This document shows, in pieces, positions 4,748-23,983 of a stretch of 64,000 bases of DNA (position 1 is the stretch's first letter; every line of letters starts with the position of its first letter). The notes below the pieces were generated by a model. It searched no databases and was not told where the DNA came from. It was given only the letters and a program-made list of their open reading frames with translations. A program made the position numbers and the translations under genes. Source of the DNA: a virus (lineage: Duplodnaviria > Caudoviricetes); the IMG/VR virus record IMGVR_UViG_3300021387_000688. One strand, given 5' to 3'.

Positions 4748-4990
4748 ATGGCAAAAGCAAAGGAATATACAATCATTAAATATCACCGTGGCCGCGAATC
4801 TGAAGTAACTGGTACTCTTGAATATCTTAAGAAATATTTCGGCTATACGCTTGAATGTGGTCATAGCTGGAATCGTAGAATCAATCCAGATCCAAAAACA
4901 TTTAAGTCGCTTGTAAATGCATTGAATGCAAGTGTAAGAGAAACACAGGGCTCTTGTTGGGATCCTGATCACTACAGTATTCCAGAGTAA
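4748..4990 (+). CDS. Hypothetical protein (80 aa)
   Basis: Start moved to ATG 4748 (strong SD). The longer ORF in the track runs through the terminator. Confidence 0.75.
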   Translation: MAKAKEYTIIKYHRGRESEVTGTLEYLKKYFGYTLECGHSWNRRINPDPKTFKSLVNALNASVRETQGSCWDPDHYSIPE

Positions 4991-5042
4991 GCGATTTTTC
5001 AAATCACTAATTTTTTAATATAATAGAATAAGAGGAATATAG

Positions 5043-6041
5043 ATGAACACTACAGGTTATTCAAATCAAGAAATCAGCGGAATGGTTCCAATTGAGAAAA
5101 TCATTGAACCTCAGTATAAAGCACAGGCTAAGCAGTATGCAGAATATCTCAACTCAATTACATTGACAGGTAATAAGAGCCGTACAAATCGTACACCAGA
5201 AGATATGCAGAAGGATGCAGAAGCAATTGATATCCTTCATCAGTTGCAGGAATGTAACGATCCAGCTTTGGCATATGGATTTATGCTTTACGATGAAGCC
5301 CATATCGTTAAAATCTATTGGGCAAAACGTTGTGGTAAGTTGCGCCAGAACAAAGCTGAGTTCTTCAATCAGGATGTTTACTTGCAGTGGTTAACTCAGA
5401 TCTTTGCAACTTTGAACGGGGATCATGAAAAGTTCCATGATCCACTTTACTTCTATAAATTGAATTCAACTGCTACAAGATCAGGAAAGAAAGTAGGTGA
5501 CTACGATGTTATGAACAGTTTCCGTACTCACTGGAATATGTACTTCCTTCCAATCTTGGCTCAGTATCTTTTCAAACTTGATCAGTTGGAATTTGAAGGA
5601 GGAGCAGTTTCAATTGAAGCTTCTCTTGAAAACGAAGATGGTGGACATCACTTGGATGCTGAACTTGCTAAGAATGCAAAAACAGTTTGGAGCGTTGAAC
5701 AGCAGGATACTTTTGATGAAGTAGAAGCTTTCCTCAAAACATTCCTTAAAGCTCCTTTGAATCAGCCAATTCCTGTAAAAGCAGGTTCACGTAGCGCCGG
5801 TGTAACATATACAGATGTAATGAAAGCTATCGTACATGCTTCAGTTTCATCTGCAGCAGGTTTGCGTTCTGAATTAGGATTGTCAATGTCTATCCTTAAC
5901 AGAACAACTGAATATATTTACCGTTTGATTGAAAAACGCGGATTGACAATTCAAGATTTTGCTGATTATCTTTCAAGTTACTCAACAGTAGCTATTGATA
6001 TCTTGGATGGTAAACCAAACTCATTCCGCATGGTAGAATAG
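5043..6041 (+). CDS. Possible divergent sigma-factor-like / HTH protein
   Basis: VSIEASLENEDG resembles sigma region 3.2; AGLRSELGLSMSILNR resembles a C-terminal HTH; biased codon usage suggests high expression. Confidence 0.35.
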   Translation: MNTTGYSNQEISGMVPIEKIIEPQYKAQAKQYAEYLNSITLTGNKSRTNRTPEDMQKDAEAIDILHQLQECNDPALAYGFMLYDEAHIVKIYWAKRCGKLRQNKAEFFNQDVYLQWLTQIFATLNGDHEKFHDPLYFYKLNSTATRSGKKVGDYDVMNSFRTHWNMYFLPILAQYLFKLDQLEFEGGAVSIEASLENEDGGHHLDAELAKNAKTVWSVEQQDTFDEVEAFLKTFLKAPLNQPIPVKAGSRSAGVTYTDVMKAIVHASVSSAAGLRSELGLSMSILNRTTEYIYRLIEKRGLTIQDFADYLSSYSTVAIDILDGKPNSFRMVE

Positions 6042-21282: not shown

Positions 21283-21497
21283 CCTTTAATCTCCCGGAAT
21301 CCAAGAAGAGTTATATTTTCCAATTCAGGATTTAAAGACTCAACTTCATGCTTCAACTGCAAGATTCCTTCTTTAGTATCAATATCAATATCGACAGAAG
21401 TATCCATAAAGAAAGAACCCATTTCAGTGTTTTTATATTGAGGAGCTTCTTCAACTTTTTTCTGAGCGGCATATGAAATATAGAATCTTTTAACCAT
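21279..21497 (-). CDS. Hypothetical protein
   Basis: GGAGG SD; ATG overlapping the nadD stop (TAATG). Confidence 0.6.
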   Translation of the reverse strand: MVKRFYISYAAQKKVEEAPQYKNTEMGSFFMDTSVDIDIDTKEGILQLKHEVESLNPELENITLLGFREIKG

Positions 21498-22199
21498 TAA
21501 GTCCTCCCGTAATATTCTTTGTCTGAAAGATACATATCCATCAATTCTGCAATCAAAGTATTGCGCACATTGGTTGCAGAACATTCTTCAAATTCTGTAC
21601 CCATGTCGAGAGGGACAGCTTCAATAATAGGAATTGGGGCATCGATTGTATCTGGTCCAGAATCCTTGCAATAAAAATCAAAGCCTCGTTTAAGATTGTC
21701 ATTCATCTTCAAAGTTTTACTTACATGATCTGAACGATTGGCCACAATCAATTTTGCAAGCTTAAGGATATCTTTATATCGTGTCCAAGTAGTAAACTCC
21801 TTAAAAGAATCTTCTCCAATCATTAAAAAGAGTTCGTCATTTGGATACTTGTCATGGAAATACTGTACCAAATTGATAGATCTCCAAGTACCGTCTTTAT
21901 CTTTTTCAATTGTATCGATTTCTACATCATAAGGGCATTTCACCAAAAAGTCTTTAATGATAGTAACCTTTTCATCATAAGAAAAAAGATAACGCTTGTC
22001 AGGTCTGTAATAATTTACAGTTGTAGGAACAATAACTACCTTATCTACAAGATTCTGTTCAAAGGCTTTTACAATTAAAGCCATATGCCCCATGTGAAAA
22101 GGATCAAACGTTTCAAGTGCCGCCGTAAATACCAATTCTTCTACGATTGGTATTTACGGCGGCATTCTCCTTAGTATTTGAATTTTCAATATCTTTCAT
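21497..22199 (-). CDS. nadD: Nicotinate-nucleotide adenylyltransferase, coding sequence interrupted by a 7-nt gap (22115-22109)
   Basis: 5' ORF 22199-22113 MKDIENSNTKENAAVNTNRRRIGIYGGT*; 3' frame FDPFHMGH...MIGEDSF..W...SATNVR. Joined, they give the canonical IGIYGGTFDPFHMGH. Confidence 0.85.
22118..22164. repeat. Perfect 19-bp inverted repeat with a 9-nt loop inside the nadD 5' region
   Basis: TGCCGCCGTAAATACCAAT (22118-22136) / ATTGGTATTTACGGCGGCA (22146-22164). Confidence 0.95.
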
Positions 22200-22214
22200 A
22201 TTAAGAATATAGGT

Positions 22215-23228
22215 TTATTTGTGCCTATATTTTCTTAAAAAATCTTTTCCATATTGAGTATTTATATAATTTAAAATTTCTTTCATTTCCTTGTTGCTAA
22301 AAATTTTTACATTATTTTGTTTCATACATTTCTCTTTAGCTAATAGTTGCTCATTACTAATCCCTTTAAAAGGATCTATTAGGTGACCCTCAGGATTTAT
22401 TAAATGACTTCCTTTGAGTTCTATCAATTTATCCCCTACTTTAAAATCCACTTCGTATTTATGTTTTTTACCTTCTATCTCGTATTCTAAATATTCTGTA
22501 TGGTAGGAAAAATCGATATTATGATCCTTAAGATAAATGTAGTAAGCTAACTCCCAACTTGAATCAAAATAAATGTTTTCGTAAAAATAATAATGCGTTT
22601 GATGCCCAGATCCCCCGTACATTCTTCCCCATCTTTCTAAACAGGTTTTAGCAGCTTTTTGTTTAACTTTATCTGATTGGGAAGATGCTTCATAACCATA
22701 TTTTTGAATACATGTTTGTTTTCTTTTTTGTACAGCTTCTTTTGTACTACATTTTATTTTAGATTTTTCCCTAGCTTCCTTTGTTTGCATTGGACCTGTA
22801 GAGTGTCCAAACTTCTCTATCATTGTTTGTTGTTGCTTTACGTGGGCTTCTTTTATAAGACCACCGCACGTAATTCCTTTGCCATACTTTTTCTCAACTG
22901 CAGCTGAAATGATGTCAGTCCTTTTAAAAATATTATCTACCCCATATTTCTTTATAGAAGTTTCTTTAGCTTTTTCTAACCTATGCTTTTCATAATTTTC
23001 CCAAGAACCGTATTTTTGGATTTTGGTGTCCTTGCTCTTGCAAATAGGGCATAGAAGTTTTGTAAGTCTATTATAAGGATTGTTTTTTAAGAAATGAATT
23101 TCTTTTCCACAGGATTCGCATTTTGAAATAAAAGATTGTTTACTTTGATAGATTTCACATGCTTCTTGAAAGTCTTCTATAGAAGACACATAGATAGGTG
23201 TTTCTGAAAATTTTAATTTGTTACTCAT
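22215..23228 (-). CDS. Free-standing putative homing endonuclease (Zn finger, KxTCxxKYG repeats, C-terminal PD-(D/E)XK-like domain)
   Basis: CESC..CPIC; repeats KETSIKKYG, KQTCIQKYG, KTCLERWG; FDSSWELAYY...YEVDF...IELKG. Confidence 0.75.
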   Translation of the reverse strand: MSNKLKFSETPIYVSSIEDFQEACEIYQSKQSFISKCESCGKEIHFLKNNPYNRLTKLLCPICKSKDTKIQKYGSWENYEKHRLEKAKETSIKKYGVDNIFKRTDIISAAVEKKYGKGITCGGLIKEAHVKQQQTMIEKFGHSTGPMQTKEAREKSKIKCSTKEAVQKRKQTCIQKYGYEASSQSDKVKQKAAKTCLERWGRMYGGSGHQTHYYFYENIYFDSSWELAYYIYLKDHNIDFSYHTEYLEYEIEGKKHKYEVDFKVGDKLIELKGSHLINPEGHLIDPFKGISNEQLLAKEKCMKQNNVKIFSNKEMKEILNYINTQYGKDFLRKYRHK

Positions 23229-23244
23229 AGTGTTTTTCCCTTTT

Positions 23245-23338
23245 AAGACGCGCCAACGTCTTTTATATTTTTAATTAGTAGAAAGGGTTAGAAAGAAATG
23301 AGTAAATCCTTTCAAGAGGTTGGCGCCTCCTGTCCCCT
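23245..23338 (-). promoter_or_regulatory. Two hairpins with complementary loops (kissing pair) upstream of the endonuclease
   Basis: Minus strand: CAGGAGG-CGCCAA-CCTCTTG and AAGACG-TTGGCG-CGTCTT. Confidence 0.55.
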
Positions 23339-23356
23339 ATGATTTTAGTTAGCCCC

Positions 23357-23983
23357 TTATAATGTTTTTAAGATGTCTGCTACATCTTCTTTTGTAAAAT
23401 TACTTCTATACATAATGTTCTGAAGGTCCTTTTTAATACGAGTGATTTTATCCTCGTGAAGTTCCTGCTTAGCATTATCGAAAAGTTCTTTCAAATCATA
23501 TCTTAAATATTCACGAATTTGGTCTTCCCAATTTTCAGGCATTACTTCAGCTTCTGCGGCTTTATAATCTTCATCCTTGAAAAGTACACCCATGCCATAG
23601 CCACTTGGACCGTATAAAGTTGTTTTCTGTTTAGGGGAACAATAAGGCTCATACAATGAAGGGTTAGCAGTATCAATGTAAAGCTTGTCGCAACCATTTT
23701 TTGGTTCCGGGAGGGGAACGTAATAGTAGTAATAGTTGTTGGCATAAATACGAATTGGATTGATATAGGATTCGTTATTAGATTCTGCCCACTGCACTAC
23801 AGCATAGATGTGATCTTTTATATGCCATGCTAATGCATTCAAGGCTTCTTCGAAATTAAAGCCTTCTCCAATAATAGTAGAGTTCTGAACTCCTGCTTCC
23901 GGATGAGAATTGAATTCTGCGCAAAGTCGAAATTTTACTCCAATCTTAATTTGTGCAAGTGTTGAACCTTTCATTTCAGTCAT
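23357..23983 (-). CDS. Hypothetical protein
   Basis: ORF in track; start likely ATG 23983, coupled to the upstream small ORF. Confidence 0.6.
   Translation of the reverse strand: MTEMKGSTLAQIKIGVKFRLCAEFNSHPEAGVQNSTIIGEGFNFEEALNALAWHIKDHIYAVVQWAESNNESYINPIRIYANNYYYYYVPLPEPKNGCDKLYIDTANPSLYEPYCSPKQKTTLYGPSGYGMGVLFKDEDYKAAEAEVMPENWEDQIREYLRYDLKELFDNAKQELHEDKITRIKKDLQNIMYRSNFTKEDVADILKTL

Follow-up and report, generated by a model that had tools for sequence, protein, structure and literature searches.

Programmed bypassing, in which ribosomes hop over a gap in a coding sequence, is known mainly from gene 60 of phage T4 and its homologues, from the byps of yeast mitochondria, and from one tested short case in a Streptomyces phage. 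In this study, we analysed a 64-kb stretch of DNA (hereafter the window) from a virus of the Caudoviricetes (IMG/VR record IMGVR_UViG_3300021387_000688), in which a nadD gene on the minus strand is interrupted by a coding gap of 7 nucleotides (nt). The gap begins with a stop codon, is preceded by a perfect hairpin that reaches into the last sense codon, and lies at the edge of a mobile cassette with a gene for a predicted homing endonuclease. We consider it probable that ribosomes hop this gap to make full-length NadD, that is, that the locus is a programmed short bypass (stop-hop) in a homing-endonuclease-resistant allele. Throughout the text, related contigs are designated by L, related proteins by P, and other samples or contigs by X, each followed by a number.

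In gene 60, the loop of a 5' stem-loop lies 26 nt from the take-off codon, and pairing of the exiting mRNA has been proposed as the driver of the hop (Wills et al., 10.1101/2024.12.09.627546). Stop or hungry codons at take-off and latitude in P-site re-pairing are described in the bypass literature (10.1101/2022.08.31.505936, 10.1101/2024.12.09.627546), and imperfect re-pairing has been reported both for gene 60 homologues and for the yeast byps. The MobA elements linked to gene 60 pass through invasion and loss of the nuclease, after which the bypass is kept or later lost (Manning and Atkins, 10.1101/2022.08.31.505936). The nadD locus resembles gene 60 and MobA in that the gap lies in a highly conserved motif with a stop right after the take-off codon, in that one tRNA can read both take-off and landing codons, and in that the loop of a 5' stem-loop is placed about 26 nt before take-off (24-28 nt in the nadD alleles). 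Likewise, a free-standing endonuclease cassette brings its own flanking codons and an N-terminal extension, and the putative bypass survives loss of the nuclease and is sometimes lost later. The two differ in the length of the gap, which is 50 nt in gene 60 and 5-8 nt in nadD, and in the absence from nadD of an A-site stem-loop in the gap, of a mini-Shine-Dalgarno (mini-SD) sequence, and of a shared nascent-peptide signal. Furthermore, the nadD hairpin reaches right up to the take-off codon, and its strength and conservation far exceed those of the 5' stem-loop of gene 60. MobA is an HNH enzyme with a topoisomerase II target, whereas the nuclease described here is a predicted PD-(D/E)XK-type member of DUF7487 with nadD as its putative target, and there is no sequence homology between the two. 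Judged from sequence, the nadD system is an analogue of the MobA element and not a member of the same family.

Other described systems are closer to nadD in the size of the hop. A short bypass in the terminase gene of the Streptomyces phage phiHau3 is documented by a junction peptide that mass spectrometry detected for a UAA variant in E. coli (PMC10732093). Like the nadD locus, it is a short-range bypass in a phage gene with a poorly decoded A-site codon after take-off, and it proves that hops of the size of the nadD gaps can be productive. Unlike the nadD locus, it involves a rare UUA codon and a proposed regulatory role, its host and gene are unrelated, and the accessible text mentions neither an abutting 5' hairpin nor a homing-endonuclease cassette. 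In unprogrammed stop-hopping in E. coli, peptidyl-tRNA leaves the codon before a stop and re-pairs with a matching codon nearby, and nine nucleotides specify one amino acid (Weiss et al. 1987, as cited in PMC10732093 and 10.1101/2024.12.09.627546). One nadD allele, TCG TAG TCG in L120, has exactly this layout; stop-hopping is low-level and has no stimulators, whereas nadD has a conserved hairpin and is a gene that would depend on the hop. The byps of Magnusiomyces capitatus (Lang et al. 2014, as cited elsewhere) are also mobile coding inserts skipped by ribosomes, with imperfect take-off/landing matches tolerated, although they are 27-55 nt long, mitochondrial, present in many copies per gene, and have no linked endonuclease gene. 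Our literature search found no paper on a gap in nadD or on a family of 5-8-nt bypasses abutted by a hairpin.

Structure of the gapped nadD locus

The first open reading frame (ORF1) starts at ATG 22199-22197 on the minus strand, encodes MKDIENSNTKENAAVNTNRRRIGIYGGT in 28 codons, and ends with GGC GGC ACT TGA (Table 1). After the gap, the sequence goes on in another frame with TTT GAT CCT TTT CAC ATG GGG CAT, as far as a stop at 21499-21497, and the frame opened by the ACG triplet at the end of the gap has 204 codons, down to 21497. When the Thr of the take-off codon is joined to the Phe across the gap, a product of 231 amino acids (aa; 28 + 203) is obtained in which the motif GIYGGTFDPFH is exact. 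This product is identical to that of an intact relative, P0074, from RIGIYGG on, and the protein identity with this intact allele is 100% over the whole nadD body. The sequence-only reading of this DNA had proposed that a skip from ACT to ACG restores the NadD motif in a product of about 231 aa, and had placed ORF1, gap, motif, hairpin, and nuclease gene on the minus strand; the restored product was borne out, and every element was found at its place.

An assembly error is excluded as the origin of the gap, as two Logan contigs from the likely source sample cover positions 22109-22118 with zero differences, and gaps comparable to that of the window are present in many independent assemblies from many studies. 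The Logan contigs of the source sample end on either side of the hairpin and share only 28 nt (window 22091-22118). A perfect palindrome evidently splits de Bruijn assemblies, and such sites may be hidden in other data by splitting of the assembly at the palindrome. No tRNA genes were found in the window.

Table 1. Features of the nadD locus in the 64-kb window
Feature	Position	Strand	Description
ORF1	22116..22199	-	Extension of about 20 codons followed by the native nadD codons RIGIYGGT, the last of which is the take-off codon
Take-off codon ACT (Thr)	22116..22118	-	Relatives have ACT, ACA or TCG at the same motif position
Coding gap, 7 nt	22109..22115	-	Stop TGA 22115-22113, spacer A 22112, landing ACG 22111-22109
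nadD body	21497..22108	-	203 codons from the resume codon TTT to the stop; FDPFHMGH ... CSATNVRN; PF01467, 54.6 bits
5' hairpin	22118..22164	-	5' arm 22164-22146 (NAAVNTN), loop 22145-22137, 3' arm 22136-22118
CCTATATT box	22206..22213	-	6-7 nt ahead of the ATG; conserved; candidate -10 element
Free-standing nuclease gene, 337 aa	22215..23228	-	N-terminal Cys4 ribbon, KYG helical repeats, C-terminal PD-(D/E)XK-like domain
Mobile cassette	22109..23351	-	Nuclease gene, promoter-like box, extension, hairpin, own codons RRIGIYGGT, gap
Small GC hairpin with T-run	23245..23262		5' untranslated part of the cassette, before the nuclease gene; terminator-like on the + strand

Gap alleles in related phages

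The DNA of relatives was obtained by exact look-ups of proteins with odd N-termini, together with one metagenome match. A distant DNA search of the phage database gave no match; single-protein queries of IMG/VR did not find the close relatives, and a profile scan there returned intact alleles only, with at most 53% identity. The window and the relatives together provide nine gap types (eight of them from the relatives), all at the same motif position and in at least six nadD backgrounds with 55-75% mutual identity (Table 2). A stop follows the take-off codon directly in all nine gap types, and TGA, TAG, and TAA all occur. Since gap lengths of 5, 6, 7, and 8 nt require shifts of +2, 0, +1, and +2, respectively, no single frameshift fits them, whereas hopping from the Thr or Ser codon onto the triplet that precedes TTY restores GG(T/S)FDP in every gap type. 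The landing triplet falls in the codon box of the take-off codon in six of the nine gap types, and, with G-U pairs permitted, each of the nine landing triplets can pair with an anticodon UGU or UGA. It is noteworthy that the spacing of GG(T/S)FDP is exact in about 90 of about 100 diverse intact nadD genes, and that a glycine is replaced in the remaining ten or so (PGS, PGT, FGS etc.); no insertion between GG and (T/S)FDP was found in any of these about 100 genes.

Table 2. Gap types at the GG(T/S)FDP motif of nadD
Allele	Take-off codon, stop, landing and resume triplets	Gap	Remarks
Window	ACT TGA A ACG TTT	7 nt	Nuclease upstream
L118	ACT TA ACG TTT	5 nt	Window sequence minus GA; stop becomes TAA; nuclease upstream
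L024	ACT TAG AA ACT TTT	8 nt	Without extension
L005, L119	TCG TAG A TCA TTC	7 nt	
L117	TCG TAG A TCG TTC	7 nt	
L120	TCG TAG TCG TTT	6 nt	In frame
L103-107	ACA TGA A GCA TTT	7 nt	
L108, L109	ACA TGA A ATT TTT	7 nt	
L110-112	ACT TGA TT TTC	5 nt	

In the pipeline call for L120, TAG had been read as Gln. However, the same gene terminates at a TAG where its intact relatives end, and TAG is therefore a true stop in L120. An alternative genetic code was considered and rejected, because long reading frames are open under table 11, the frames differ across the gap, and L120 ends at TAG.

Many nadD calls on long contigs (P0055, P0078-84, P0086, P0091, P0106, P0112, and P0117-126) start at an internal Met or Leu and have lengths of 169-198 aa, including 169, 178, 179, 195, and 198 aa. 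One type among them begins with MIKNFWHIGH, as though interrupted inside FDPW. These short nadD calls probably represent additional gapped alleles or interruptions of a second kind.

The hairpin abutting the take-off codon

As had been read from the sequence, the hairpin of the window is a perfect one, with 19 bp that are 100% complementary, a 9-nt loop, and the A of the ACT take-off codon as its final base; its 3' arm encodes IGIYGG plus this base. Among the 25 longest of 60 inverted repeats in the 64 kb it is the only perfect hairpin, and the inverted-repeat scan of the window found no second hairpin of the same kind. A region of 156 nt folds with -50.3 kcal/mol (z = -6.3), and none of 200 shuffles folds as well.

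For comparison between alleles, we folded a segment of 67 nt from each of them, with the first base of the take-off codon as its 3' end. All ten gapped alleles have the hairpin, with -20.8 to -32.9 kcal/mol and z scores of -4.3 to -8.2, and the last base of its 3' strand is this first base of the take-off codon or, in L108 and L120, the base before it. A comparable hairpin was found in none of eight intact alleles (z scores of -2.4 to +1.3), including L113, which keeps the extension. When the eight distinct hairpins were aligned, 83% of the cells pair and five pairs are changed on both sides, as in GCCGCC/GGCGGC of the window versus GCCACC/GGTGGC of L118; the covariation score exceeds those of all 500 shuffles, and far lower scores were obtained when the register was slid. 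The stems of L005, L117, L024, and L120 contain three or four G-U pairs, and the sense RNA is more stable than the antisense RNA by 9-15 kcal/mol. Because the G-U pairs stabilise the sense strand over the antisense strand, the comparison points to selection on the mRNA rather than on a DNA palindrome.

The take-off codon follows the 5' side of the loop at a distance of 24-28 nt. The proposal that the 5' arm is encoded by the N-terminal extension holds for the window but not as a general requirement. The sequence of the extension varies between lineages, and it is missing in L024, which has only nine codons before take-off and whose 5' arm sits in the 5' untranslated region (UTR) and takes in the SD sequence. 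From L024, the extension appears to be one way of supplying the 5' arm and not a requirement; in addition, it is in frame in the intact relatives P0020 and P0102. No local stem-loop at the gap, such as the A-site stem-loop of gene 60, recurs across the alleles, and neither a mini-SD, for which a gap of 5-8 nt leaves no room, nor a shared nascent-peptide signal was found in them. An outer helix that pairs the landing region with the extension was rejected as a common element; it can be formed in the window and in L024 and is unconserved elsewhere. In a consensus scan, the hairpin at 22118-22164 was also picked up as a terminator-like element of the + strand, with TTCTCCTT as its tail; in this orientation, antisense to nadD, it may stop antisense transcription, or the resemblance may be a coincidence.

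Identity of nadD and selection on the gapped alleles

The PF01467 score of the nadD body (Table 1) compares with a cut-off of 21 bits, and the characteristic motifs (T/H)xGH and SxTxxR are represented by FDPFHMGH and CSATNVR. An intact twin, P0001, matches NadD models best among the NCBIfam profiles, with scores below the equivalog cut-offs (99.5 versus 112.45 for TIGR00482). By these matches, the gene encodes a cytidylyltransferase-like or NadD-type protein, a predicted adenylyltransferase of a divergent phage clade. In a close relative, an NAD synthase gene (PF02540; L002:1-95) lies about 3 kb upstream of nadD, which suggests a phage gene cluster for NAD synthesis, and the gapped gene probably serves the NAD supply of the phage. 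Phage nicotinamide mononucleotide adenylyltransferase (NMNAT) enzymes have been described as contributing to the reconstitution of NAD against defences that deplete it (10.1101/2024.02.11.579819).

In each of the ten gapped alleles, the 3' frame stays open for 174-204 codons, and none of them has a further break. Pairwise ratios of non-synonymous to synonymous substitution rates (dN/dS) among the gapped alleles range from 0.00 to 0.24, and from 0.02 to 0.24 in pairs other than L110/L112. L110 and L112 share the same 5-nt gap, have no adjacent nuclease gene, and are about 95% identical both in nadD and in the flanking genes; in nadD they differ at 26 of 549 nt, all of them third codon positions, with no amino-acid change. 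The expectation that the 3' frame would be free of pseudogene decay was thus confirmed, and the ratios indicate purifying selection. In every gapped allele, ORF1 keeps (K/R)IGI(F/Y)GG(T/S) in frame with its ATG, also in lineages in which synonymous sites have reached saturation. The open 3' frames, the low dN/dS, the purely synonymous divergence of L110 and L112, and the in-frame motif of ORF1 together argue that both halves of the gapped nadD are translated and joined.

The mobile cassette and its predicted nuclease

X3, a contig of 30 kb from a different sample within the same study, matches the window without a difference over 21400-22108 and 23352-23400, and has 33 nt (ATG AGA ATT GGA ATA TAC GGG GGT ACT, then TTT GAT) where the window has 22109-23351 (1243 nt). 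Since the flanks are identical and the 1243 nt are swapped for 33 nt, otherwise identical phages either carry or lack this block, and the claim that gap and endonuclease form a mobile cassette is borne out. The right edge of the cassette is the landing codon, and the cassette has swapped the native ribosome-binding site and the first nine codons of nadD for its own copy. The gapless, nuclease-free layout of X3 is also that of L001 and L002 (98% and 88% protein identity), and the synonymous differences from L001 are concentrated at the 5' end of nadD. When the window is compared with L118, DNA identity is 90-92% in the nuclease part and 68-76% in the nadD body, from which it follows that the cassette moved between diverged targets; for L005 and L117, identity is 94% in the module and 78% in its surroundings. 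Evidently, the putative bypass module has been transferred often, and many of the interruptions are young.

The nuclease gene ends 16 nt before the ATG of nadD, and its product matches Pfam DUF7487 with 51.8 bits (cut-off 27) and PHROG 3339, annotated as 'homing endonuclease', with 1.3e-7; the PHROG match agrees with the earlier assignment of a putative homing endonuclease gene at this place, while the Pfam family is a domain of unknown function. In an alignment of 44 homologues, the Cys pair, the KYG units, FDSSWE, D261, and E270-x-K272 are invariant or nearly so. In an AlphaFold2 model with a mean confidence score (pLDDT) of 87.8, residues 208-329 align to TnsA, I-Bth0305I, Bax1, and Vsr, with Z scores of only 4.6-5.5, and a PD-(D/E)XK-type homing endonuclease is a reasonable reading of this predicted fold. 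The nuclease is similar to I-Bth0305I, Vsr, and TnsA in its D...ExK motif, in the match of its predicted fold (Z of about 5.5), in being free-standing, and in its presence/absence polymorphism, but it differs from them in an N-terminal Cys4 ribbon and an array of KYG repeats that are specific to DUF7487. A sequence search of the PDB with the nuclease gave no useful match, our literature search found no paper that mentions DUF7487, and tblastn detected neither paralogues of the nuclease nor a second cassette in the window. In L110 and L111, a longer DUF7487 gene (597 aa; 4763-5558 in both contigs) lies about 1.7 kb downstream of nadD and adjoins a gene with a faint DNA_pol_A match; the L110 and L111 phages carry several nucleases of the DUF7487 family.

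Among the gapped alleles, the nuclease adjoins the gap in the window and L118 only, and lineages without the nuclease gene keep gap and hairpin. In most gapped alleles, the nuclease has been lost or was never present. The expectation that endonuclease-free alleles lack gap and hairpin is thus correct for X3, L001, and L002, which lack both, but not for most gapped alleles, which have no adjacent nuclease. In L113-116 (L113:1380-1600), the last nuclease codons remain and continue in frame into the extension and an intact nadD with GGA GGA ACA TTC; the hairpin is missing, and a remnant of its 5' arm (GCCGCT GGA ACA ACC AAT) has no partner. This arrangement suggests a cassette that has shed both nuclease and gap, the latter by recombination. 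In L121 (L121:3001-4260), a 78%-identical DUF7487 nuclease is located directly before an intact, hairpin-less nadD, which starts with MKEKIGIFGGTFDP (MKEK) and has GGA GGA as Gly codons, so that the expectation of a gap in nuclease carriers fails here; immunity in L121 may come from synonymous recoding in place of a gap. By analogy, the pattern seen in the nadD alleles matches the life history of MobA elements described by Manning and Atkins.

The CCTATATT box between nuclease gene and nadD has equal spacing in the window, L005, L113, L118, L119, and L121, and may act as the -10 element for a transcript with a short leader or none. A general role of CCTATATT as promoter motif was rejected, as the octamer is not enriched in the window. 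The untranslated 5' part of the cassette with its GC hairpin (23245-23352) may control the nuclease gene. Related genes are found on contigs of up to about 400 kb, and the runs that hold the stretch of the window are animal gut metagenomes by their records, some of them labelled sheep, goat, or bovine. The phage is accordingly a jumbo phage from the gut communities of animals, probably ruminants.

Discussion

The proposal of a short Thr-to-Thr stop-hop with a hairpin and a mobile endonuclease cassette is supported by the comparative tests, namely by the presence/absence polymorphism of the cassette, by the versions of the gap with 5-8 nt, by the hairpin in ten of ten gapped but none of eight intact alleles, by the covariation of its pairs, and by purifying selection on the 3' frame. 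In this model, the ribosome would read ORF1 up to Thr28 (ACT), when the stop, slowly decoded, would occupy the A site. By then, the 5' arm and the loop of the hairpin would already be outside the ribosome, and the 3' arm, which consists of the last 19 nt through the first base of the take-off codon, would zip with the 5' arm on emerging and thereby pull the mRNA ahead over the required few nucleotides. Peptidyl-tRNA-Thr, in all likelihood a U34 species able to read ACU, ACA, and ACG, would leave ACU and re-pair 7 nt downstream at ACG. Decoding would restart at TTT and yield one protein of 231 aa with the motif GIYGGTFDPFH, for which IGIYGGTFDPFHMGHMALIVK would be the tryptic junction peptide. 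At the level of the DNA, the gap would disrupt the target of the endonuclease, the highly conserved DNA coding for GGTFDP. Carriers of the gap would escape cutting yet still make the enzyme, and the bypass module would outlive loss of the nuclease gene. As suggested in the sequence-only reading, the hop might also tune the output of NadD.

Several points weigh against this proposal. The idea of synonymous take-off and landing codons stands for the window (ACT/ACG) and, as membership of the same codon box, for six of the nine gap types, but the landing triplets of the other three (GCA, ATT, and ATT) fit through non-standard G-U positions alone; these three differ from the take-off codon by a transition. 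At take-off, most of the 3' arm would be within the ribosome, so that the role of the hairpin as driver belongs to the model, and the A-site stem-loop, the mini-SD, and the common nascent-peptide signal of gene 60 are missing. Parts of nadD and of the nuclease gene are represented in RNA-library contigs (X5), which leave the junction uncovered, and the RNA-library material of X17 is from an intact relative. The nuclease carrier L121 does without a gap. Each gapped allele has an intact twin with 95-100% protein identity, and most interruptions must therefore be recent; for a recent interruption, an open 3' frame alone proves little, and recombination could blur the dN/dS argument.

These last points would suit a gapped nadD that is dead, in which the insert, as a scar or as an allele resistant to the homing endonuclease, would have been spread by drive in mixed infections although it destroys an accessory gene, the 3' frame looking intact through recency alone. 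Besides the near-identical twins and the contigs that stop short of the junction, this explanation can draw on the accessory nature of nadD and on the conservation of cassette or module beyond that of the target (for L005/L117 and window/L118, as given above), which suggests repeated recent transfer. We nevertheless regard a dead gene, the main alternative, as unlikely. It does not explain why the stop follows a Thr or Ser codon in nine of nine gap types, why six of nine landing triplets are synonymous with the take-off codon, why a covarying sense-strand hairpin is found in every gapped and no intact allele, or why the short ORF1 keeps its beta-1 motif in frame across saturated divergence. 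Nor does it account for L110 and L112, with 26 synonymous and no non-synonymous differences and equally diverged flanks, or for the persistence of gap and hairpin in lineages without the nuclease.

Stimulation of +1 frameshifting by a stop codon in the A site is well established, as in prfB. A local frameshift or readthrough at the stop (+1, +2, or suppression), which would leave one or two extra residues such as GGT-ET-FDP in the window, therefore deserves consideration, the more so as the window needs +1 only and readthrough would do for the in-frame gap of L120. It is very unlikely as a general explanation, because the alleles need +1, +2, or 0 and would insert ET, EA, EI, RS, T, I, or XS, with no common mechanism or product, and such insertions within GG-(T/S)FDP are absent from about 100 diverse intact nadD genes. 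Moreover, the 2-nt deletion of L118 relative to the window alters the required shift while keeping the stop and ACG, and slips from ACU to CUU or from UCG to CGU give no re-pairing. Expression in two pieces, or of the 3' piece only, would call for a restart near the stop or at TTG 22135, with the beta-1 peptide acting in trans or being dispensable. Genes split into two working pieces by homing-endonuclease insertion, T4 gp60/gp39 and Aeh1 nrdA, offer a precedent (10.1101/2022.08.31.505936), and gene callers give alternative starts in some alleles. We attach very little weight to this possibility, as the triplets before TTT (ACG, GCA, ATT, ACT, TCA, and TCG) include no conserved start codon and no SD is conserved near the gap, TTG 22135, which is part of the 19-bp stem, lacks an equivalent in L005, L024, and L120, and the N-termini of the MVFTAALE type are unconserved; a 9-residue strand of a Rossmann core is, in addition, an unlikely partner in trans. 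Removal of the 7 nt before translation, by RNA excision or editing, or their origin as an assembly artefact, is hardly credible, and nothing in favour of either was found: the gap is found in independent contigs of the source sample and comparable gaps in the assemblies of many studies, and the hairpin lies upstream of the gap instead of spanning it. We know of no bacterial or phage system that excises 5-8 nt.

If the gapped nadD alleles are indeed read by a programmed stop-hop, a minimal portable device may suffice for efficient hopping, consisting of a hairpin of about 45 nt that abuts the take-off codon, a stop, and two to five spacer bases, without A-site stem-loop, SD, or nascent-peptide signal. 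Large gut phages might use it repeatedly, possibly several times per genome, as a general means of protecting essential motifs from homing endonucleases. We put forward this broader proposal tentatively, as a possibility that we would not yet call probable.

In summary, the nadD locus would be a much simpler natural bypass system, with a gap of 5-8 nt, one obvious stimulator, and nine natural variants that differ in gap length, stop, Thr or Ser take-off, landing match, and presence of the extension. The model in which pairing of the exiting mRNA drives forward sliding would be directly testable in it with small reporters. For annotation, gene callers split or truncate such genes or invoke TAG as Gln, and functional phage genes may thus be scored as broken. 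Finally, an endonuclease-resistance allele of a gene likely to act in NAD metabolism would persist in these phages without the nuclease.

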